IMG/VR virus record: IMGVR_UViG_2778261645_000001
Origin: a virus
Taxonomy: Duplodnaviria > Heunggongvirae > Uroviricota > Caudoviricetes
Direction: 5' to 3' (one strand)
DNA: 6,252 nucleotides
A model generated the notes under the pieces. That model was not told where the DNA came from and did not search any database. It saw nothing but the letters and a program-made list of their open reading frames with translations. Made by a program: the position numbers and the translations under genes. This document shows, one piece after another, positions 1 to 6,252 of the stretch (within the stretch, counting starts at the first letter, position 1; every line of letters starts with the position of its first letter).

Positions 1-60
1 GATGATCTGGCAGCCTGAGTTCACAGATAAAACACTCTCCAGGAAACCCGGGGCGGTTCA
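1..60 (+). mobile_element. Right terminus (IRR) of an IS3-family insertion sequence, IS629/IS1203/IS3411-like; the body of the element lies upstream of the window
   Basis: Positions 36-60 (ctccaggaaacccggggcggttca) are the imperfect inverted complement of 6193-6216 (tgaaccgccccggaaatcctggag) at the other end of the window. Ends in the TG...CA dinucleotides typical of IS3-family ends. Matches my recollection of the IS629 right end. GC content is visibly higher than in the flanking cargo. Confidence 0.75.
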
Positions 61-1259
61 GTTAGTGAGTTGTTCCAAGTATTCTTTAAGTTCCCTAACA
101 TCGTCTGCGTAGAGTCCTGAATAGCTTTCCAGCCACCTCTGGAATTAATCTGTGAACCAAGTTCTTTAGCAAACTTAGGGAGTGCATCAGAGGCTTTAAC
201 ATCACCATTTTTCATCTTATCGAAAAGCTGTTTTTCAGTCAGACCTAAAGCCTTTGCAAATGCCTGAGTAGCACCCGGTAAAGCTTCAGATAGTTGCCCC
301 TTAAGCTCTTCAGCCATCACCTGACCCTTAGAAGCCATCTGCGATACTGCGGTTAATGCTCTTTGAATCTGCTCATCTGAACGACCCATTAAACGGGCAT
401 ATCCAGTTAAGTTTTTAAATAATTCCTCTGAGCCTTCAAGACCCATCGTATTTTTTGCAGATGCACCAAATGAAGCAAACTGTGCTTGTGTTTCGGTTGT
501 GTCCATACCAGTAATTTGAGTTAAATCTTGAATGAACTTTTTGACCTGTGTACTTTGGTCACCGAATACGAAATCAATACTTCTTTCCGATGATGCACGT
601 TGAAGGCCAACTTCCATAATCTTCTGATAACTGGCTAATACAGCCTGCATTGAGATAAATGCACCTGCTGTTTTGACTGCTGCCGAAGACAGGTTATCAA
701 GGCTGCTAGCTGCTCTGTCACCATTAATGCTGGTGGATGTATGACCTCTGGCTTTAGCAATTGCTTCTCGTACACTTGAATTTAGTTTAGCAAGGGCTTC
801 ATTAAACTTGGTGTTATCCATCTGACCAGCTTTACTACTTAATGCGTAAAACTGGCTCTTAATGTATTTCTCGACAATTGGGTTAAGACCTTTCAGCTTG
901 GTCATATTAGCTGAATAAGCTGCTGTGATTGCTCTGTTGCCGCTAATTCGTGGCTGTCTCGGTTGTTTTGGAGGATTAATCGCATCATTAACCTGACTTG
1001 TGAAACGGAAAGCTTTAGTATTTTTTGCTCTAGCTTCCAGACGGTCAAAGGTCTTATTAATTTTCCCTTCCATTGACTTCAAAGAACTTGTCAGATTACT
1101 GTCAAGTTGCTTGGTATCGACCTTAAACGCTCTATTCAAATTCCGTTCAATTCTTTGTGCTGATTGCAAAGCTGCCTTTTCAACTCTTTGCAAGCCCTTA
1201 ACAACGTTCTCGCTGAAGCCTAGCTCAACGATAAAACTATCAACTTTAAACTGTGCCAT
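21..1259 (-). CDS. Phage tail tape measure domain protein, N-terminal ~399 codons only; 3' end interrupted by the IS terminus (likely pseudogene or truncated gene)
   Basis: 412-aa ORF with ATG at 1259 and a Shine-Dalgarno-like AGAGGTGA about 11 nt upstream. The segment GLEGSEELFKNLTGYARLMGRSDEQIQRALTAVSQMASKGQVMAEELKGQLSEALPGATQAFAKALGLTEKQLFDKMKNGDVKASDALPKFAKELG resembles the conserved tape-measure domain (TIGR02675/TP901-type core). The last 12 residues (EPPRVSWRVFYL, plus the stop) are translated from IS terminal sequence (21-59), so the native frame is cut at position 60/61. True tape measure proteins are usually much longer than 400 aa. Confidence 0.6.
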   Translation of the reverse strand: MAQFKVDSFIVELGFSENVVKGLQRVEKAALQSAQRIERNLNRAFKVDTKQLDSNLTSSLKSMEGKINKTFDRLEARAKNTKAFRFTSQVNDAINPPKQPRQPRISGNRAITAAYSANMTKLKGLNPIVEKYIKSQFYALSSKAGQMDNTKFNEALAKLNSSVREAIAKARGHTSTSINGDRAASSLDNLSSAAVKTAGAFISMQAVLASYQKIMEVGLQRASSERSIDFVFGDQSTQVKKFIQDLTQITGMDTTETQAQFASFGASAKNTMGLEGSEELFKNLTGYARLMGRSDEQIQRALTAVSQMASKGQVMAEELKGQLSEALPGATQAFAKALGLTEKQLFDKMKNGDVKASDALPKFAKELGSQINSRGGWKAIQDSTQTMLGNLKNTWNNSLTEPPRVSWRVFYL

Positions 1260-1350
1260 TGTTCATATTTCACCTCTTTAAGCGTGAGCTACGTAAAAAA
1301 TAATTTTTGGTGTAGGTATTAGCTTTACAGATTTCACGTAGCACACATAC

Positions 1351-1393
1351 AAAAAAGGAGAGTTACCTAGATTGCCATCCAGATAATCTCTCC
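1351..1393 (-). terminator. Candidate rho-independent terminator downstream of the 71-aa gene
   Basis: On the minus strand: GGAGAG (revcomp of 1388-1393), a 25-nt loop, CTCTCC (revcomp of 1357-1362), then TTTTTT (revcomp of 1351-1356). The stem is short and the loop long, so this is weak to moderate. Confidence 0.3.
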
Positions 1394-1426
1394 CGTTGAT
1401 TTTACCCAACCAATTCTATTCTCAAA

Positions 1427-1642
1427 TTAATGGTAAACGTAAGAATACATCCCATCATCACCTAAAATCTGTGCGTCACATGGTAATTTATCTAAGCACC
1501 ATGAAGGAATCCTTCTAACCTTTGGTTTGTGTGAGGTGATAACTCGATGTTGATTTCCAATTCGTAGCTTTGGTTTGGCTTGTAACTTTAAGTTTTCACA
1601 AGCCGACTTAATAGTTTCATAACGCTGTTGCAAATCAATCAT
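1427..1642 (-). CDS. Hypothetical small basic protein (71 aa)
   Basis: ORF track gives 1427..1648 with a GTG start. The ATG two codons in (1642-1640) is preceded by GAGGTG about 4-5 nt upstream, so I prefer it. It sits directly downstream of the 235-aa gene. No recognisable motif. Confidence 0.55.
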   Translation of the reverse strand: MIDLQQRYETIKSACENLKLQAKPKLRIGNQHRVITSHKPKVRRIPSWCLDKLPCDAQILGDDGMYSYVYH

Positions 1643-1658
1643 TCTCACCTCACTTAAA

Positions 1659-2366
1659 TTAAATCACTTTGCTGTATTTCTGAGGAACCTTCAGTAGCTG
1701 TTCAATGTCACCTTGCAGGGCAACCTTTTTCTGTGCCTCGTATTCGGCTATCAAAGATTTCATGCTATCAAGTTCTTTTTTAAGCTTTTGCTTTAACTTA
1801 TCCAGTTTACCGGAATAATGCTTAGTCAAATTAGCTTCAGCTAACTGAAGAATCTCTTCATCTGTTTTATCACTCATCAGAATAAATTGACCAGAACCCC
1901 TTAATGCTTGTCTGACATCAATTAACCGGAACCCTTCAGGGATACTTTGAAGAACTTTAGGAACGTCTTCAATCGCTGTACCAAAACCATCATTAAAGTT
2001 TCCTTCATAATAGATAAATGGGTTTGACTTAATCTCGTAAGCAATATCATATTCTGAAGGTTTCGAGGTTTCTTCGAAGTTCTTAACATTGTCGTAAGCA
2101 ATATCAAGTCGAATACGCTGTTCTTTTAACTGTGGGTAATATTCACGCTCAAGATTAAATAGTGCTTCACCCTTGCAGATATCTGGCATTTCTTGAGGCT
2201 CAGGAGACACAAAGGTAATTTGCTTCGGTGACATTCGGATTTCTTGCTCAAGTGCAATTCTTTCATCATGTTCTTTACGCTGAATAGTGATAGCTGGATG
2301 TTCAGTCTGTGGCGACCAGTCACCGAAGCTATCAACCTTTCTACCGCTAATATATAGATTTTCCAT
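1659..2366 (-). CDS. Hypothetical protein (235 aa from the preferred ATG), charged, with a Lys/Glu-rich probably helical C-terminus
   Basis: ORF track gives 1659..2411 with a GTG start. The internal ATG at 2366-2364 (MENLYISGRK...) is preceded by GAAGAGGAAAA about 5-8 nt upstream. Long uninterrupted frame. The nested 61-aa and 81-aa ORFs in other frames are treated as artefacts. Confidence 0.7.
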   Translation of the reverse strand: MENLYISGRKVDSFGDWSPQTEHPAITIQRKEHDERIALEQEIRMSPKQITFVSPEPQEMPDICKGEALFNLEREYYPQLKEQRIRLDIAYDNVKNFEETSKPSEYDIAYEIKSNPFIYYEGNFNDGFGTAIEDVPKVLQSIPEGFRLIDVRQALRGSGQFILMSDKTDEEILQLAEANLTKHYSGKLDKLKQKLKKELDSMKSLIAEYEAQKKVALQGDIEQLLKVPQKYSKVI

Positions 2367-2573
2367 TTCATTTTCCTCTTCTAAGTAATACTCAGTTTTT
2401 AAAAAGCACACCTGACATCCTACAAACTTAGAAGAGGCTTAAAAGGCGTTTGCCAAGTATGCTTTTTAAAAGCTGAAAAAGCCCTAGATAACTAAAACGC
2501 TATAAAGGGCTAAGGTGAAGAAATTAAAACATCTAAAGGATTCAATAACGAATGAACAAGAGTACTTTTCGAG

Positions 2574-2602
2574 ATGACCTCTCAGGTTATATAAGAGGTC
2601 AT
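2574..2602. repeat. Perfect 9-bp inverted repeat ATGACCTCT-N11-AGAGGTCAT in the 435-bp gap
   Basis: Arms at 2574-2582 and 2594-2602 are exact reverse complements. No flanking T-run on either strand, so it is more likely a protein-binding palindrome or RNA hairpin than an intrinsic terminator. Confidence 0.4.
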
Positions 2603-2846
2603 GTAGCGAAAAGCATTGCACCTTTCAGAATGTTCGGTATAGAACATACCTCACCAACTCAGAATATCCATCCATCCATCTGATTATTGAAAGAAATATA
2701 AGAGAGAATTACTCTCCCATAATTAAAATTATGTCATGCTTAAGGTTATTTGTCAACAACTTTTTAACAGATTGGTAACATTTATACTTTAATAGATGCA
2801 CCTGCAATCATACCAATCAATACAAAACAGATAATCACCAATTCCA

Positions 2847-3176
2847 TTAATGCACCACCTTCGAATCCGTCACCAAAATATTGTCAGCGTACAAAATTGC
2901 TATAGCTGCCTTGAGATATCTTTCAGGGCTAATGCTGTATTTGTTCGTTTGCTCGATAACCAATCTTTTCATGTTGCTGTCTTTAATTGGTAGCATCATT
3001 CGAGGCTCGTTAAACTCCACCGAGTGAATAAAGTCAGAGATGTTTTCTGCATTATCAGCCATCAAAGCTAACAGCCTGTCAAAGTCAATGCTAATACCTG
3101 CATCAATGAAGCTTTGCACCATCATAGCAGTGTCGGTATCAATAAAAATCTGTAGTGGGAAGTTTAATTCTCTCAT
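2847..3176 (-). CDS. Hypothetical acidic protein (109 aa)
   Basis: ATG at 3176-3174 with a strong Shine-Dalgarno AAGGAG about 9 nt upstream (minus-strand context AAAAGGAGATTTTAAGAAATG). Clean ORF. No recognisable domain. Confidence 0.7.
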   Translation of the reverse strand: MRELNFPLQIFIDTDTAMMVQSFIDAGISIDFDRLLALMADNAENISDFIHSVEFNEPRMMLPIKDSNMKRLVIEQTNKYSISPERYLKAAIAILYADNILVTDSKVVH

Positions 3177-3197
3177 TTCTTAAAATCTCCTTTTTAC

Positions 3198-3318
3198 CAG
3201 ACCTCCTCAATCGCTCTGTAACGAGCTAAACAGTCTTTTTCAGGGGTAGCCTGTAGGGGTGTGCCACATACCCTAAAATAAGATAGTTTTTTGCGTTAGA
3301 ATGCGATTGAGAGCGTCT
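3198..3318. repeat. Copy 1 of a two-copy ~100-120 bp element with conserved inverted termini (repeat A)
   Basis: Shares a ~46-bp left block (cagacctcYtcaatcgctctgtaacgagYtaaac...cagg) and a ~30-bp right block (ttttttgYgtYagaatgcgattgagagcgtct) with 5125-5222; the centre differs. The outer 16 bp of the two blocks are imperfect inverted complements (13 of 16). It lies in the 169-bp spacer between the 69-aa and 109-aa genes. Confidence 0.6.
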
Positions 3319-3345
3319 GAGAGTGGGTAAAACCGTTTTTTGCCT

Positions 3346-3555
3346 TTAGTCTGAGACTATTAACCCCATCTCACTATGAAATTGACTAAACCAGCTTTTT
3401 GTTACTGAGGTTTTTAGTGTGAAAGATGGGGATTGCATAATCAGATAGATGCCATCATTATCAATGTCGCCCCATCCACTATGTACATCAATTAGATTTC
3501 GAAAATATTTAAAGGCTTTGTCTGTTTTAAGTTTGAGGGTGAATACTTTCTTCAT
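3346..3555 (-). CDS. Hypothetical protein (69 aa)
   Basis: ORF track gives 3346..3567 with a TTG start. The ATG at 3555-3553 has GGGGGAAAGA immediately upstream and forms an ATGA start/stop overlap with the upstream 76-aa gene, indicating translational coupling. Confidence 0.55.
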   Translation of the reverse strand: MKKVFTLKLKTDKAFKYFRNLIDVHSGWGDIDNDGIYLIMQSPSFTLKTSVTKSWFSQFHSEMGLIVSD

Positions 3556-3782
3556 TCTTTCCCCCAATTCTTAATGAGTTCATAGGCCCGTTTAAATTGA
3601 GTCGGGTCACTATAATCAAGCTCGATATCCAGTGACTTTAATTCATAGCGTAACTGCTCAATTTGATGTGGCTTTAGTCTTTTCTTGTTACGGTCAAGCG
3701 TAACATCTTCATATTCTTTTGAGCGGGTATCTTGCCTGATTAGATGTGATGCCAGTCTATAAAATTTGTATCTACATAGCAT
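3552..3782 (-). CDS. Hypothetical small basic protein (76 aa)
   Basis: ORF track gives 3552..3815 with a TTG start. The ATG at 3782-3780 is preceded by a consensus Shine-Dalgarno AGGAGG with a 5-nt spacer, and overlaps the stop of the upstream gene by one base (TAATG). Confidence 0.65.
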   Translation of the reverse strand: MLCRYKFYRLASHLIRQDTRSKEYEDVTLDRNKKRLKPHQIEQLRYELKSLDIELDYSDPTQFKRAYELIKNWGKE

Positions 3783-4054
3783 TAAACCTCCTGTAGCAAA
3801 TTGTTTGGGTGGCAATTTCTCTTATTACCATCCCTGAAGATAATCTTTTTAGTTGCCTGAACTTCATGATGCAAAAACCAGATGACATACTTCACATAAT
3901 AATCACGAGTGCCATAACGAATCATTGGATTACCGTAAGCATCATCTCTTGTCTTAACCTCTCCGCCATCAATCCATTCAAGCATTCCTGTTTCGTAATT
4001 AATCATGAAGTAAGTTGCAAAGAACCGTTTAATATCATCTCGCCATTGCTTCAT
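3782..4054 (-). CDS. Small HNH_3-like (phage HNH endonuclease-like) protein, 90 aa, possibly catalytically degenerate
   Basis: ATG at 4054-4052 with GGAGGT about 7 nt upstream. The C-terminal stretch YYVKYVIWFLHHEV...IIFRDGNKRNCHPNNL resembles the HNH_3 signature (h-H-x-D-G-N-K-x-N-N-x-x-x-N-L), but Arg replaces the His that normally precedes DGN. The protein ends right after NNL. Confidence 0.45.
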   Translation of the reverse strand: MKQWRDDIKRFFATYFMINYETGMLEWIDGGEVKTRDDAYGNPMIRYGTRDYYVKYVIWFLHHEVQATKKIIFRDGNKRNCHPNNLLQEV

Positions 4055-4056
4055 AA

Positions 4057-4335
4057 TCAGACCTCCAGAGACAGCTTGCGAATCTTGATGCTCAATAGAC
4101 GGGCAATATCAATTTTAAAGCTGTTAAGTCCCTTCAAAGTATCTAAAGCGTCCTGAGTAATTCGGATGTGTTTACGACCTTTAGAAACTGGATATTTAAG
4201 TAAATCCGACTCAGTGACCTCTTTAGCAATTGCAAGCTGCATAACAGTCTGATGAGGCAAGCTACTAGCTCGTTTAATTCTGGTAAGCTCGTTAAAAGCT
4301 TCCTCTGAAATACGGGTTAATGTGTGTTTATTCAT
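4057..4335 (-). CDS. Putative ribbon-helix-helix (Arc/CopG-like) DNA-binding protein, 92 aa
   Basis: ATG at 4335-4333 directly abuts the stop of the upstream gene (TAAATG), with AGAGGAA about 7 nt upstream. The N-terminus HTLTRISEEAFNELTRIKRASSLPHQTVMQLAIAK fits a beta-strand, helix, helix RHH pattern. Assignment is by pattern only. Confidence 0.4.
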   Translation of the reverse strand: MNKHTLTRISEEAFNELTRIKRASSLPHQTVMQLAIAKEVTESDLLKYPVSKGRKHIRITQDALDTLKGLNSFKIDIARLLSIKIRKLSLEV

Positions 4336-4893
4336 TTAAAATTCCTCTGTAACTAAATACGGGTCAAACTCGAAATCTGGTTGCTCGTTTTCCATTGGCT
4401 CAATATTCCCAACGGCAATATGATGTTCAACAATACCAATTAGCTTTGCACACATTACAGCAAGCAATGCACAATAGGCATCGGTTGGTAATTCGTAGCT
4501 AAGTCTGGTTGCTTGTCGCTGAAGATGATTTGTCACGGTAGCTGAGTTAATTTCATCAAGGTTCTTTAGAAGATAAAATAGTTTTTTGTTGTATTTCGGG
4601 TGGCCTTCACTTCTACAGAATCCAATGAAAATATCATCAAGCTTACTTGGTAGTTGCTCGTAGCTGTCGAAGTTAGCCAAATAATTTTTGATGCTGTTCT
4701 TTGTTGTTTTGCGTACTGACATATAACGACTCCTCGGTGTAATTGCCCGAATTACTTCGTCAATGCCTTTGCGTTCTGCTCTGGTGAATTTGGGTACTTC
4801 GTGGCTGGTGGGGGAGTTTGTGTAAGCGTAGGAGTTGTGCTTGTTGCGTTCTCTCGATGCCTGAAGCATCGCTCTAAATTCTCTGTCGTTCAT
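4336..4893 (-). CDS. Hypothetical protein (185 aa), promoter-proximal first gene of the small-gene operon
   Basis: ATG at 4893-4891 with AAGGA about 12 nt upstream. It sits about 45 bp downstream of the -10 of a near-consensus promoter. Acidic C-terminal tail (ENEQPDFEFDPYLVTEEF). No domain recognised. Confidence 0.7.
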   Translation of the reverse strand: MNDREFRAMLQASRERNKHNSYAYTNSPTSHEVPKFTRAERKGIDEVIRAITPRSRYMSVRKTTKNSIKNYLANFDSYEQLPSKLDDIFIGFCRSEGHPKYNKKLFYLLKNLDEINSATVTNHLQRQATRLSYELPTDAYCALLAVMCAKLIGIVEHHIAVGNIEPMENEQPDFEFDPYLVTEEF

Positions 4894-4942
4894 TCATAAG
4901 CCAGTCCTTATAATTGTTAATTCTCTGTTAACCATATATACA

Positions 4943-4971
4943 ATACTAGCAGTTTCAAAGACTAATGTCAA
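4943..4971 (-). promoter_or_regulatory. Near-consensus sigma70 promoter for the leftward small-gene operon
   Basis: On the minus strand: -35 TTGACA (revcomp of 4966-4971), a 17-bp spacer, -10 TAGTAT (revcomp of 4943-4948). Correctly placed upstream of the 185-aa gene start at 4893. Confidence 0.6.
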
Positions 4972-4978
4972 GCATTTT

Positions 4979-5008
4979 TTAACATTTCATTAACATCTGT
5001 GGTATAAT
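4979..5008 (+). promoter_or_regulatory. Rightward promoter with extended -10, divergent from the operon promoter
   Basis: -35 TTAACA (4979-4984), an 18-bp spacer, extended -10 TGgTATAAT (5000-5008). Back to back with the leftward promoter; the two -35 elements are 7 bp apart. Confidence 0.5.
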
Positions 5009-5124
5009 GGTTCTATGGGGAGAGTAAAATATAAAGGCGTGGCTATGAGGTTTATTCGATAGGGGTTGGTACAAGCCCAACTAACCGAATCAACTATGTA
5101 TGTCACATGGTATTGCATTGCACA

Positions 5125-5222
5125 CAGACCTCTTCAATCGCTCTGTAACGAGTTAAACGGCCTCTTCAGGTCAACTCATAAGGTCAGGTACTTTTTTGTG
5201 TCAGAATGCGATTGAGAGCGTC
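5125..5222. repeat. Copy 2 of repeat A
   Basis: Same conserved left and right blocks as 3198-3318, with a shorter, divergent centre. Lies about 115 bp downstream of the rightward promoter; its right block ends about 5 nt before the AGGA ribosome-binding site of the 5238 ORF. Confidence 0.6.
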
Positions 5223-5237
5223 TTACAAGGAAAACTA

Positions 5238-5414
5238 ATGGTAAATCTCCCTCCTGAACTGGGGTCACCTGATGTATGGGCTGGTGGAGGTATTGGCCTT
5301 ATTTCAGGTCTGCTGCTTCGTTACGTCCTTGTCAGAGTGCTTGTTGTCTTTAAACTGTTCGGTCGTACATGGACGCTTGACCTTAAGGATAATGACCACA
5401 CAGACCCCCGCTAA
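5238..5414 (+). CDS. Candidate small hydrophobic (single-transmembrane) peptide, 58 aa
   Basis: ATG at 5238 preceded by AGGA with a 7-nt spacer. Product MVNLPPELGSPDVWAGGGIGLISGLLLRYVLVRVLVVFKLFGRTWTLDLKDNDHTDPR has one hydrophobic segment of about 23 residues. ORF track reports it as 5196..5414 from a TTG start. Local GC is higher than the surrounding cargo. A weak CCCC/GGGG hairpin (5429-5452) follows the stop. Confidence 0.3.
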   Translation: MVNLPPELGSPDVWAGGGIGLISGLLLRYVLVRVLVVFKLFGRTWTLDLKDNDHTDPR

Positions 5415-5489
5415 ACCCCCTCCAAAACCCCCTGTACGAGATGGTATAGGGGCATCTTTAGCATTTTGTGCTATCTATTAAAAAATAGC

Positions 5490-5519
5490 TTGACAGAACC
5501 GGAAAGCTGTATCTATCAA
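5490..5519 (+). promoter_or_regulatory. Possible promoter reading into the tandem-repeat region
   Basis: TTGACA (5490-5495), an 18-bp spacer, TATCAA (5514-5519). The -35 is consensus but the -10 is weak, and there is no obvious downstream gene. Confidence 0.25.
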
Positions 5520-5534
5520 GCACTCACCTCTCTG

Positions 5535-5724
5535 ACAGTAATTTCTAAAAGTTCTTATTTTTCAATAAGTTGTAATTAGCCATATATAGAGAACTGACAA
5601 GTCTCTTCACAGAGAACTCTGTAACCTTAACAGTAATTTCTAAAAATGCTTATTTTTCAATAAGTTGTAATCACCCAATATAATAGCTGTTCAGCTTCTT
5701 CACAGGGAAACTTCAGAGGCCTTC
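5535..5724. repeat. Two tandem ~95-bp direct repeats (repeat B), each with a CTTATT-N4-AATAAG hairpin
   Basis: Units start at 5535 and 5630. The first 42 bp are 40/42 identical (acagtaatttctaaaaNtNcttatttttcaataagttgtaat); the remainder is recognisably related but diverged. Embedded inverted repeats at 5554-5569 and 5649-5664. Unit 2 contains a perfect TATAAT at 5679-5684. Confidence 0.65.
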
Positions 5725-5985
5725 TTAACCGCCCCACTAATCGGGAGAAGAGCGATAACCACAGAGAGGGAAGCTCCTTTCTTAACCGACTTCTTAAACA
5801 ATCTTTACAGACCCCGTTCACCAGTCTCAATATTTTATTTCTCGCTCTTCGTTTGTTGCTCGTTTCTATTATTGAGGGGGTTTGAAAAACCTCTGTAAAA
5901 TAACCCTTCCAGTAAAAAGCGAATAACCCCAGAAAGGGGAATCGCCTCTTTAACATTCTCGTAATCAGCACTCTATATGAGAATC

Positions 5986-6192
5986 TTAGCTCAACCTTTG
6001 AACAATCTTGTAAGTGGTGCTTAGAGGCATTCTTAGCGATTCTGCGATGCTCTTGATGGGTTGCCCTTGGTCATACATTTTAATCAACCTGTCAAGCGTC
6101 TGTGCATCGTGTATATGAGGTCTTCCACGTAAACCACCCCTATTAACCACGGCAAGTAAAAGCATTGTGTCACCACAATAGATTGTCTGGGT
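5986..6192 (-). pseudogene. 3' fragment (68 codons plus stop) of a small serine recombinase (resolvase/invertase family), truncated at the IS boundary
   Basis: The minus-strand frame open from 6192 to the stop at 5988-5986 translates to TQTIYCGDTMLLLAVVNRGGLRGRPHIHDAQTLDRLIKMYDQGQPIKSIAESLRMPLSTTYKIVQRLS. The GRP followed by ...G-x-x-I-x-x-I-A-x-x-L-x-x-x-x-S/T-T-x-Y-K pattern matches the C-terminal HTH of resolvases such as gamma-delta, Hin and Gin. The catalytic N-terminal part would have lain where the IS now sits. Not in the ORF track because it has no in-window start. Confidence 0.55.
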
Positions 6193-6252
6193 TGAACCGC
6201 CCCGGAAATCCTGGAGACTAAACTCCCTGAGAAAGAGGTAAACAGGATGACT
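6193..6252 (+). mobile_element. Left terminus (IRL) of a second IS629-like element, including the orfA ribosome-binding site and start codon (ATG 6247-6249)
   Basis: TGAACCGCCCCGGAAATCCTGGAGACTAAACTCCCTGAGAAAGAGGTAAACAGGATGACT matches my recollection of the IS629 left end and orfA start (MT...), with one or two differences. It is the inverted complement of 36-60. Same orientation as the copy at the window start. Confidence 0.75.

Follow-up and report, generated by a model that had tools for sequence, protein, structure and literature searches.

To our knowledge, the PLE/ICP1 system of Vibrio is so far the only one in which satellites of a virulent phage have been characterised in detail. Between P2 and P4, reciprocal transactivation by Ogr and delta operates through activator sites shared by helper and satellite promoters. 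Besides a large serine recombinase and ORF-less ori and pac regions, PLEs have genes for a small membrane protein and a nuclease of the HNH family; they also bring a tape measure protein, a tail assembly chaperone and a baseplate hub protein of their own, which give rise to chimeric tails (PMC12987554; 10.1101/2021.07.12.452122). That satellites supply their own tape measure protein for chimeric tails is a finding from 2025-2026 (PMC12987554; PMC12822802). The small-gene operon described here belongs to an E. coli island that is similar in logic to the Vibrio PLE satellites and, as judged by domain scans, unrelated to them in sequence.

An integrative island compared with PLE satellites

The window (the whole stretch of DNA analysed, 6,252 nucleotides) is an entire draft contig with IS629 ends on both sides, which truncate an island of ~11.6 kb. 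From one end, the island comprises a large serine recombinase (507 or 547 aa), a tube-initiator/Dit-like gene, a tape measure gene, genes of ~70 and ~235 aa and the operon, beyond which lie the divergent promoter region, the gene of a 58-aa membrane protein, a stretch without ORFs and a Dam-HTH or resolvase-HTH gene; in PADLOC, the gene in the Dam slot matches an orphan methyltransferase model. The island is mobile, with one gene order recurring at three chromosomal sites (tonB-yciI, inside yecE and ymdF-wrbA) where the flanking host genes are intact. Of 5426 complete E. coli genomes, 356 contain the operon core, which is chromosomal in every case and reaches 3 copies at most; island-positive strains include E47, KFu019 and ET82. 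Copies diverge by 10-40% at the protein level and keep the compact 11.6-kb architecture; the tape measure, 185-aa and 250-aa proteins are strongly diversified between islands, and some islands have acquired IS insertions (L010, L013). The tape measure and Dit-like genes are the only structural genes, and the island contains nothing recognisable as a replication initiator, a terminase subunit or a capsid-remodelling gene. RefSeq annotates it with phage-like genes and hypothetical proteins only, and its matches in IMG/VR are contigs of 25-54 kb that resemble prophage calls, with no free island genomes among them. The 11.6-kb island is apparently undescribed, as our literature search returned no account of it or of any Felixounavirus satellite.

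In common with the Vibrio PLEs, the E. coli island is compact, has a large serine recombinase, mostly orphan genes and large ORF-less regions, and encodes a small membrane protein, an HNH-family or homing-endonuclease-derived protein, and its own tape measure and baseplate or tube-initiating proteins related to those of a virulent myovirus. The combination of serine recombinase, ORF-less ori region and partial tail module that marks PLE architecture is present, as is the combination of own integrase and incomplete virion gene set that marks satellites in general. In contrast to the PLEs (~18 kb), the island measures ~11.6 kb, lacks both a RepA_N initiator and any recognisable tail assembly chaperone, and is hosted by Enterobacterales with Felixounavirus as putative helper. 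Beyond the generic recombinase and tape measure domains, Pfam domain scans of the E. coli island proteins gave no indication of homology to the PLE core (RepA_N, CapR/T5orf172, NixI, TcaP, LidI), and a T5orf172 gene occurs in a distant Klebsiella relative only. Similarly, the six operon proteins showed no resemblance to PLE, PICI or P4 protein families in the libraries searched.

Operon structure, promoters and repeats shared with Felix O1-like phages

The sequence-only reading had placed a strongly promoted operon of six short genes at 4057-4893, a range that holds the 185- and 92-aa genes alone; the six genes (185, 92, 90, 76, 69 and 109 aa), all of which were recovered as ORFs of the claimed sizes, span 2847-4893 and lie on the minus strand throughout. 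The genes and the elements between and behind them are as follows.

4336 to 4893, minus strand: 185-aa gene; all-helical product with an invariant acidic/aromatic C-terminal tail (PDFEFDPY..EEF)
4057 to 4335, minus strand: 92-aa gene; basic product (pI 10.1), predicted single-chain tandem ribbon-helix-helix (RHH) protein
3782 to 4054, minus strand: 90-aa gene; degenerate HNH_3-like product with the catalytic His replaced and no AP2 domain
3552 to 3782, minus strand: 76-aa gene; basic product, first gene of the cassette
3346 to 3555, minus strand: 69-aa gene; second gene of the cassette, ATGA overlap with the 76-aa gene
3198 to 3320, no strand: palindromic, island-specific element of ~120 nt between the 69- and 109-aa genes, part of the cassette
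2847 to 3176, minus strand: 109-aa gene; acidic product (pI 4.7), own AAGGAG ribosome-binding site
2782 to 2847, minus strand: hydrophobic 21-aa micro-ORF MELVIICFVLIGMIAGASIKV, its ATG overlapping the stop of the 109-aa gene (TAATG)

The claimed junctions (TAAATG, a 2-bp gap, TAATG and ATGA) were confirmed by reading the sequence, and a Shine-Dalgarno-like purine run precedes every operon start. Tight co-translation holds for the first five genes and not for the 109-aa gene, which begins 169 bp downstream of the 69-aa gene. The operon genes are real genes, with low dN/dS across island copies (0.195, 0.18 and 0.017 for the 185-, 92- and 90-aa genes in 14 copies; 0.27 for the 109-aa gene in 4 copies). 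The description as a co-directional, translationally coupled small-gene operon with a conserved, strong-looking promoter upstream is upheld, and the label ‘early’ is plausible. The control elements are listed below.

4979 to 4995, plus strand: right iteron pair TTAACATTTCATTAACA, at about -43 to -59 of P1
4943 to 4971, minus strand: operon promoter P1, TTGACA-17-TAGTAT with a TG extension, scoring 10/12
near 4936, minus strand: predicted transcription start of P1, from the promoter scan
4915 to 4931, minus strand: left iteron pair TTAACAGAGAATTAACA, phased at 11 bp, covering about +5 to +21 counted from the P1 start
2697 to 2756, minus strand: second promoter, TTGACA-17-CATAAT, TG-extended, scoring 11/12, with a hairpin

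P1 is the near-consensus promoter that had been proposed ahead of the operon, and its -35 hexamer and extended -10 frame (TGnTA..AT) are conserved in 12/12 related loci aligned. As the promoter scan overall returned 14 sites against 14.6 expected from shuffles, and hence no enrichment, the case for P1 is made by its score and its conservation. On either side, P1 is flanked by inverted pairs of TTAACA repeats with 11-bp phasing; the arrangement TTAACA-N5-TTAACA occurs 2 times in the window versus 0.00 expected, and at the same place in island loci. The left pair is predicted to be operator-like from its position and is identical at 16 of 17 nucleotides to positions 15206-15222 of phage ASO1A, while the right pair, which is conserved in related loci and overlaps the -35 hexamer and spacer of a divergent rightward promoter (Pr), matches ASO1A 15126-15142 at 15 of 17. 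In this phage the same arrangement is found 6 times against 0.02 expected, a link between island and phage that is based on a 6-bp motif and its phasing, and all six lie inside the only dense TGTTAR array of the genome (33 sites, mostly 11 bp apart, in an ORF-less region at 14.9-16.2 kb), which is conserved in 264 phage records. As with P4 and P2, a short motif in the island control region recurs in the phage genome, and one binder could serve both. Unlike the late-promoter sites of P4 and P2, however, the TTAACA repeats are phased at 11 bp and form an iteron-like array in an ORF-less region of the phage, and the island has no Ogr/delta-like zinc-finger protein.

The second promoter is probably that of the tail-module genes (for the 250-aa, 73-aa and tape measure proteins) and shares 17/17 nucleotides with a phage promoter region. 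The hairpin lies directly 3' of it, and in 5 loci the promoter is conserved while the hairpin arms vary in a compensatory way. Other short identities connect non-coding DNA of the island with promoter and ORF-less regions of the phage.

The tail genes lead to the same phages. The Dit-like protein of the island is 76% identical in amino acid sequence, over 98% of its length, to the product of the gene directly downstream of the Felixounavirus tape measure gene, a position that holds in about 250 Felixounavirus genomes, and at the nucleotide level the identity reaches 93% over 518 bp. The hub complex of phage Bas63 consists of the tape measure protein gp17, the tube initiator gp18, the hub protein gp20 and gp21, and the gene that follows the tape measure gene is taken as the tube initiator on account of this numbering. 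The best phage matches of the island tape measure protein, at 32% identity, come from the same Felixounavirus phages; its length is ~690-726 aa in the islands and 742 aa in ASO1A. The island thus shares genes and motifs with Felixounavirus, a group of virulent Felix O1-like myoviruses that, on these sequence matches, appear to be its partner phages. Together, the shared genes and iterons suggest Felixounavirus as a candidate for helper-dependent induction, replication and packaging of the island.

Core proteins and cassette of the operon

A comparison of gene content between loci identified the 185-, 92- and 90-aa genes as a fixed core, with the 76+69-aa cassette as the only variable part. Searches with tblastn, phmmer and a family HMM found no phage homologues of the operon proteins, and PADLOC gave no match for any of the six. 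The sequence-only reading had recognised no family for four of the proteins, and this stands, as the 185-, 76-, 69- and 109-aa proteins had no significant match in Pfam, PHROGs, NCBIfam or PADLOC.

The 185-aa protein forms an orphan family, for which an exhaustive HMMER search yielded a single cluster with 50% identity, along with fragments and two remote relatives. Homologues with 27-31% identity are encoded in recombinase/tape-measure islands (with or without the Dit-like gene) of Pectobacterium, Klebsiella and Leclercia, in every case adjoining an ORF-less stretch of 0.6-1.7 kb with phased TGTTAR pairs; a scan of species-representative genomes located the 185-aa gene in E. albertii and one Citrobacter only, and no phage homologue was found. 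By this distribution the 185-aa protein is a core hallmark of the island family and no accessory effector, and we infer that it is a candidate iteron/ori-binding protein or master regulator. The single-sequence AF2 model was poor (pLDDT 61), with nothing meaningful from Foldseek against the PDB, and a winged-helix hint on a distant homologue was not significant (RQC, E = 0.025). A role as an excision factor for the serine recombinase is weakened, given that the 185-aa alleles do not follow the recombinase type (507 or 547 aa).

The second gene had been read as an RHH regulator, and the fold, though not that of a simple RHH monomer, is borne out by structure prediction. The AF2 model (pLDDT 90.7, pTM 0.82) has the topology b-a-a-(a)-b-a-a, with elements E4-10, H11-24, H28-36, E54-60, H61-70 and H77-91, and we are confident, on the strength of this model, that the 92-aa protein is a single-chain tandem RHH of two beta-alpha-alpha units. 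Its top Foldseek matches were TraY (9f0x_E), DndE (4lrv) and AvtR (4hv0), with probabilities up to 0.98, TM-scores of 0.5-0.63 and weak PDB E-values (0.06-0.2), and the fold also matches tandem-RHH proteins of archaeal viruses in BFVD. TraY of the F plasmid, AvtR of an archaeal lipothrixvirus and DndE have two RHH units per chain, as predicted for the 92-aa protein, which is also basic like them; in contrast, there is no sequence similarity to the three and no relaxase or dnd context. The sequence had no match in the PDB and only sub-threshold matches to curated RHH families (VAPB_antitox, E = 0.08; DndE TIGR03184, E = 0.03), the VapB-antitoxin-like one falling on the N-terminus. BLASTP of one half against the other was empty, so that the duplication is visible in structure only. 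No toxin family was found among the neighbours of the RHH gene, which, with the tandem single-chain form, does not fit a type II toxin-antitoxin pair.

For the 90-aa protein, the proposed HNH_3 assignment holds as far as an HNH_3-like alignment; the score for PF13392 (22.7 bits) is below the Pfam gathering threshold of 24.8, and both the catalytic His and the AP2 domain are missing. The N-terminal beta-hairpin motif (YETG..W) and the ..DGN...N..NL core align with the HNH_3+AP2 enzymes of Felix O1-like phages at 26-28% identity. However, the catalytic IDHIDGN of Felix01p176, a bona fide HNH_3+AP2 homing endonuclease of Felix O1, corresponds to IIFRDGN in the alignment, neither the catalytic His of the D-H motif nor a complete beta-beta-alpha-metal finger was found, and the protein ends directly after the NL motif, where the AP2 DNA-binding domain is absent. 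The gene is the most conserved of the island, being 99-100% identical in 13 loci.

The 76+69-aa pair is present in 4/13 loci, while the others carry a single 128-aa gene with a weak C-terminal HTH in its place, and the segment of the window at 3155-3774 has no homology in many islands. To judge from this gene content, the pair alone behaves as exchangeable cargo. The 109-aa gene sits behind the palindromic element, and the 21-aa micro-ORF is present in 6/20 island loci. Three identities considered for the palindromic element were rejected: it is not a MITE, as it is confined to these islands and, in the 319/5426 genomes that have it, the median number of places is one; not a conserved RNA, since RNAalifold, applied to 20 copies of three types, gave -3.9 kcal/mol without covariation; and not the crossover site of an invertible switch run by the small resolvase, as the orientation of the 58-aa and Dam/resolvase genes is fixed in the ~20 loci compared, with the single exception of a distant resolvase-like match (41% identity) on the opposite strand of L019. 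Rfam contained no RNA family matching the window or one whole island.

A proposed helper-sensing operon and competing readings

We lean, with slightly better than even confidence, towards a reading in which the operon serves early regulation and DNA transactions in a PLE-like satellite of Felix O1-like phages; that the island is a satellite, what binds the repeats and which parts the proteins play in replication or regulation are what we infer from sequence comparison. The six genes would form the promoter-proximal part of the leftward transcription unit of the island, and P1 output would depend on a protein bound to the two inverted TTAACA pairs around P1, one pair lying at +5 to +21 of P1 and the other over the -35 of the opposing promoter. 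Since the same repeats form the phage array, the binder would be either a phage protein or an island protein acting on the phage array, and if it is a phage protein, the island would sense infection. The conserved trio (185, 92 and 90 aa) may serve in switch control and in starting replication or excision of the island at the neighbouring ORF-less region, with the 185-aa hallmark as the best candidate for an island iteron/ori-binding factor, the tandem RHH protein as a putative autoregulator or TraY-like architectural DNA-bending partner, and the 90-aa protein as a presumed domesticated, non-catalytic homing-endonuclease remnant. The 76+69-aa cassette would be exchangeable cargo, and the 109-aa gene and the micro-ORF would close the unit before the second promoter, which would drive the tail module.

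A bolder version, which we put forward tentatively and consider possible rather than probable, is that the island is the first of a new family of Enterobacterales satellites parasitising virulent Felix O1-like myoviruses, with chimeric tails built from its own tape measure and tube-initiator proteins and the operon as a helper-sensing switch that reads the shared repeats. Here, either a phage iteron-binding protein or the 185-aa factor would read 11-bp-phased TTAACA repeats on both island and phage, which would tie induction and replication of the island to infection and might disturb the phage array. If true, a PLE-analogous element would exist in E. coli (about 6.6% of the complete genomes), Shigella, Salmonella and Citrobacter, and with it a tractable model of satellite biology; it could explain differences between strains in susceptibility to Felix O1-like phages used in typing, biocontrol and therapy, and the TTAACA pairs with three compact proteins (185 aa, tandem RHH and dead HNH) would offer a means of studying how a lytic helper is sensed.

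Among the alternatives, the one that survives best, though we think it unlikely, is that the island is never packaged and acts in defence, blocking Felix O1-like phages through its own tape measure and tube-initiator proteins or through abortive infection by the 58- and 21-aa membrane peptides, with the operon as sensor and regulator or as a toxin-antitoxin-like part. Interference with tail assembly is a known defence strategy (PMC11364771; Rta in PMC12987554), for which the island tail proteins could serve as decoys, and the lack of packaging and replication genes, the diversified tape measure, 185- and 250-aa proteins, the orphan methyltransferase model matched in the Dam slot and the weak VapB-antitoxin-like match of the RHH protein (E = 0.08) are all in keeping with it. 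However, PADLOC matched none of the six operon proteins, and a compact unit with a large serine recombinase that moves between three sites and several genera implies a route of transfer. The recent exchange with the phage at the nucleotide level fits an element that replicates alongside the phage in one cell, as satellites do, but is also compatible with defence, as PLEs do both.

The operon had also been likened to phage early or moron operons, including anti-defence loci. As an acr-aca-like or moron module, its small proteins would inhibit host defences under autoregulation by the RHH protein, which we regard as improbable; nothing in the results supports an anti-defence role for the operon. 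Small orphan proteins behind a strong promoter with an embedded RHH gene would suit such a module, as would the swappable 76+69-aa cassette, swapping being common for accessory cargo, and the 109-aa protein, acidic (pI 4.7) like some DNA-mimic inhibitors. Yet the locus lies in a serine-recombinase integrative island and not in a phage, the leading gene is conserved across genera as a hallmark of this island family, the RHH and HNH-like genes belong to the fixed core and are under strong purifying selection, the RHH gene is in the middle of the operon rather than at its end, and there was no library match, including to any known Acr/Aca or anti-defence family.

Least probable of all, and very unlikely in our view, is a decaying prophage remnant with the operon as a functionless leftover early operon: RefSeq lists phage-like and hypothetical genes only, two IS629 copies cut the element in the window and IS insertions occur in several islands (L010, L013), but the operon genes are in no sequenced phage, the 11.6-kb architecture recurs at three sites despite 10-40% protein divergence, all genes tested are under purifying selection, and related islands with the same core are found in other genera.

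Layout and promoters of the operon

An ORF scan placed all substantial open reading frames of the window on the minus strand. The operon comprises six short genes reading leftward from about position 4936, and the sequence shows a purine-rich ribosome-binding site ahead of each. The six-gene operon proposed by the sequence-only reading held as to its ORFs and junctions, whereas the interval assigned to it, 4057-4893, covers only the 185- and 92-aa genes.

Genes and promoters of the operon region
4979..5008, plus strand: opposing near-consensus promoter, TTAACA-18-TATAAT, TG-extended
4971..4943, minus strand: operon promoter P1, TTGACA-17-TAGTAT, with TG extension
4336-4893, minus strand: 185-aa gene, the first leftward from about 4936
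4057-4335, minus strand: 92-aa gene, TAAATG junction with the 185-aa gene
3782-4054, minus strand: 90-aa gene, 2-bp gap after the 92-aa gene
3552-3782, minus strand: 76-aa gene, TAATG junction with the 90-aa gene
3346-3555, minus strand: 69-aa gene, ATGA overlap with the 76-aa gene
2847-3176, minus strand: 109-aa gene, 169 bp beyond the 69-aa gene
2782-2847, minus strand: 21-aa hydrophobic micro-ORF MELVIICFVLIGMIAGASIKV, its ATG overlapping the 109-aa stop codon

A promoter scan of the window overall gave no enrichment over shuffled sequences, so the case for P1 and the opposing promoter is their conservation, both being kept in 12 related loci. That the operon genes are real follows from their dN/dS across island copies, which is 0.195 for the 185-aa, 0.18 for the 92-aa and 0.017 for the 90-aa gene (14 copies), and 0.27 for the 109-aa gene (four copies). 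Downstream, a second near-consensus, TG-extended island promoter (2697-2756, minus strand) is followed directly by a hairpin whose arms vary compensatorily between islands while the promoter remains constant. Several promoter-then-hairpin cassettes also occur in the annotated early region of the Felixounavirus phage ASO1A (10224-10293, 11275-11344 and 13302-13398 of its genome record, L016).

The mobile island and the operon proteins

Exact copies of the operon proteins were found on one E. coli draft contig of 6252 bp, and this contig is the complete window. IS629/IS1203 termini form its two ends (1-60 and 6193-6252), their inverted repeats lying at 36-60 and 6193-6217, which leaves 61-6192 as native DNA. 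One IS truncates a tape measure gene and the other the Dam-HTH gene of an island, the HTH_7 C-terminal domain of which remains as a 59-aa ORF (5986-6165, minus strand). The intact form in relatives is an island of ~11.6 kb with ~90% nucleotide identity to the window.

Features of the intact island
Large serine recombinase of 507 or 547 aa
Dit_like 'baseplate' (tube-initiator-like) protein, then tape measure protein
Genes of ~70 aa and ~235 aa after the tape measure gene
Genes of 107-109 aa, then a cassette, then genes of 90, 92/93 and 183-185 aa
Divergent promoter region beside the 183-185-aa gene
Gene for a 58-aa membrane protein, on the opposite strand to the operon
ORF-less stretch, then a Dam-HTH or small resolvase-HTH gene
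Far end, a further 1-1.8 kb without genes

The island is mobile, as it occupies three different places (the tonB/yciI interval, inside yecE and the ymdF/wrbA interval) with the flanking host genes intact. Among 5426 complete E. coli genomes, 356 contain the operon core, which is chromosomal in every case and reaches at most three copies; the core is also present in Shigella, Salmonella, Citrobacter, E. albertii and E. fergusonii.

The 185-aa protein falls into one 50%-identity cluster among 1.8 billion representatives, together with fragments and two relatives of 30-32% identity, and no phage homologue was found. Its predicted structure is all-helical, of low confidence and without a fold match, and its acidic/aromatic C-terminal tail (PDFEFDPY..EEF) is invariant across E. 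coli alleles, even those only 56% identical. Distant relatives (27-31% identity, 273-304 aa) occur in islands of Pectobacterium, Klebsiella aerogenes and Leclercia, each of which encodes a large serine recombinase. Two of them, those of Pectobacterium and Leclercia, also encode a homologous tape measure protein, and a Dit_like gene is present in the Pectobacterium island; the Klebsiella island carries T5orf172 and HNH_3 genes and a Phage_TAC_15 chaperone adjoining a 769-aa gene cut by the end of the locus. In phmmer comparisons, the proteins shared with the distant islands were limited to the recombinase, the tape measure protein, Dit and the 185-like protein. As it is common to islands of other genera and always adjoins an ORF-less stretch (0.6-1.7 kb), the 185-aa gene is not cargo but a hallmark of this family of islands.

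The 92-aa protein is basic (pI 10.1), and its AlphaFold2 model (pLDDT 90.7, pTM 0.82; alignment of 24 homologues) has a strand-helix-helix-(helix)-strand-helix-helix topology. The top PDB folds were TraY of the F relaxosome (chain identity confirmed), DndE and AvtR, all single-chain double ribbon-helix-helix (RHH) proteins, with Foldseek probabilities up to 0.98, TM-scores of 0.5-0.63 and E-values of only 0.06-0.2. The nearest viral models were tandem RHH proteins of archaeal viruses (E down to 6.5e-4); no sequence method detected the RHH relationship.

The 90-aa protein had been taken for an HNH_3 protein, and its likeness to that family stands, at a sub-threshold match, while the endonuclease motif is lost. 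Its weak phage matches are HNH_3+AP2 homing endonucleases of Felix O1-like phages, and in the alignment with Felix01p176 it reads IIFRDGN where the endonuclease has IDHIDGN, then ends after NL without an AP2 domain. Its gene is the most conserved of the island (99-100% identity, against differences of 10-40% in its neighbours). Judged from sequence, the protein is functional, and a nuclease role is most likely not its function.

No family was found for the 76-aa (basic), 69-aa or 109-aa (acidic, pI 4.7) proteins. The segment 3155-3774, which holds the 76- and 69-aa genes and a palindromic element, lacks a counterpart in 9 of 13 related loci, where one gene of 128 aa, with a weak HTH at its C-terminus, stands instead; by this comparison it is an exchangeable cassette. 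A second variable spot lies just past the 109-aa gene, where 6 of 20 loci have the micro-ORF (identical peptide in five, a one-residue difference in the sixth). The island-specific palindromic element (~100-123 nt; 3198-3320 and 5125-5225) occurs in up to three copies per island, the third being inverted and beyond the Dam/resolvase gene in intact islands (e.g. 26858-26976 of L001). Copy 1 gives a good hairpin fold (z = -3.7 to -5.9). A conserved RNA was rejected, with consensus structure and covariation absent across 20 copies, as were a MITE (the element is not genome-wide) and an inversion site (no inversion polymorphism was seen).

Links to Felix O1-like phages

The island Dit_like protein shares 76% identity over 98% of its length with a protein in ~250 Felixounavirus genomes, whose homologue in ASO1A (ASO1A_066) directly follows the tape measure gene. 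The hub complex of phage Bas63 consists of the tape measure protein (gp17), tube initiator (gp18), hub protein (gp20) and gp21 (PMC12609058), and this numbering is the ground for taking the gene that follows the tape measure gene as the tube initiator. Part of the island Dit_like gene has 93% nucleotide identity to the phage over 518 bp, which points to recent exchange between the two. The island tape measure protein is also nearest to that of the same phages (32% identity; E = 1e-60 to 1e-78).

The link extends to control DNA. The motif TTAACA-N5-TTAACA occurs twice in the window (4915-4931, minus strand; 4979-4995, plus strand; 0.00 expected) and at the same position in island loci. Relative to P1, the left pair falls at about +5 to +21, within the operon transcript, and the right pair, at about -43 to -59, overlaps the -35 and spacer of the promoter that faces the other way. 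In ASO1A the motif occurs six times (0.02 expected), always within an ORF-less region (14.9-16.2 kb). This ~1.3-kb region (L016 14900-16200) holds 33 TGTTAR sites, mostly 11 bp apart, as the sole dense array of the 87.6-kb genome. The array recurs in conserved form, without annotation, in 264 phage records; it probably acts as an origin or in regulation, and the literature yielded no account of it. Of 17 positions, 16 agree between island TTAACAGAGAATTAACA and phage TTAACAGAGATTTAACA, and phased TGTTAR pairs are also seen in the distant islands of Pectobacterium, Klebsiella and Leclercia, in their control or ORF-less DNA. Short identities further join window 5915-5940 to the edge of the phage array. 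One phage promoter region has such identities to two parts of the island, namely the -35 region of its second promoter (2749-2765) and 49 nt lying upstream of its Dam gene.

A satellite-like reading and its alternatives

PLEs, the Vibrio satellites that parasitise phage ICP1, have a large serine recombinase, ORF-less ori/pac regions, a small membrane protein and an HNH-family protein (PMC12987554; 10.1101/2021.07.12.452122), and were reported in 2026 to build chimeric tails on a lytic myovirus with their own tape measure, tail chaperone and baseplate hub (PMC12987554). The island resembles PLEs in its logic, and on that basis the operon is best read as its module for early regulation and DNA transactions. 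In this reading an iteron-binding protein would act on a switch made up of P1 and the opposing promoter: occupation of the right pair would turn the rightward promoter off and possibly activate P1, and occupation of the left pair would block P1. Were the binder a phage protein, the island could sense infection; equally, the binder may come from the island and act on the phage array as well, in which case the 185-aa hallmark would be the most economical candidate. The tandem RHH protein would be an autoregulator or a TraY-like DNA-bending accessory, and the dead HNH protein a domesticated homing-endonuclease remnant. These roles are inferred from what the analysis does show: the anatomy of the operon and island, the protein folds, the selection, the mobility of the island, and the genes and motifs in common with the phages.

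A serious alternative is a defence island that poisons phage tail assembly and is not itself packaged, although this and a satellite are not mutually exclusive, as PLEs do both. The anti-defence module initially suggested for the operon found no positive support, and the core status of three of its genes speaks against it; the cassette and the acidic 109-aa protein are the sole remaining candidates. A decaying prophage is unlikely given the compact architecture conserved at three sites, the purifying selection on the genes and the relatives in other genera.

In the full-text literature outside subscription titles, no description of the island or of any Felixounavirus satellite was found. A 2025 preprint reports tape measure genes as absent from satellites except PLE11 and its own mycobacterial elements, and a 2026 Nature paper lists putative ones only in PLE-like elements and cf-PICIs (PMC12987554).

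Several further features of the island were observed. The single-pass 58-aa membrane protein (MVNLPPELGSPDVWAGGGIGLISGLLLRYVLVRVLVVF...; 5238-5414, plus strand), encoded behind the 4979-5008 promoter and divergent from the operon, is conserved (dN/dS 0.20) and annotated in some RefSeq genomes; its position recalls that of the small PLE membrane protein LidI. The ORF-less region contains 48-nt direct repeats (5535-5582 and 5630-5677; 92% identical, 95 bp apart), each with a (C)TGACAG/TTAACAG motif and a CTTATT-N4-AATAAG palindrome; related islands retain them, and they may belong to an origin or a packaging signal. The slot adjoining this region is occupied in some loci by a Dam-type N6-adenine methyltransferase and in others by a small serine resolvase (window 5986-6165, minus strand; locus L005, 7599-8261; locus L007, 6838-7386). 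HTH_7 is predicted at the C-terminus of both (E = 1.9e-6 for the window ORF of the Dam-HTH homologue, 5e-6 for the resolvase), but the window ORF has no tblastn match in resolvase-bearing loci, so the two domains are not established as homologous. Homologues of the 250-aa protein (1659-2411, minus strand) are labelled 'transposase' in some RefSeq genomes, and no transposase domain was found in it with any library. Its gene and the tape measure N-terminus (21-1259, minus strand) are the most divergent of the island, at 24-93% and 46-91% identity between copies, which suggests diversifying pressure on both.
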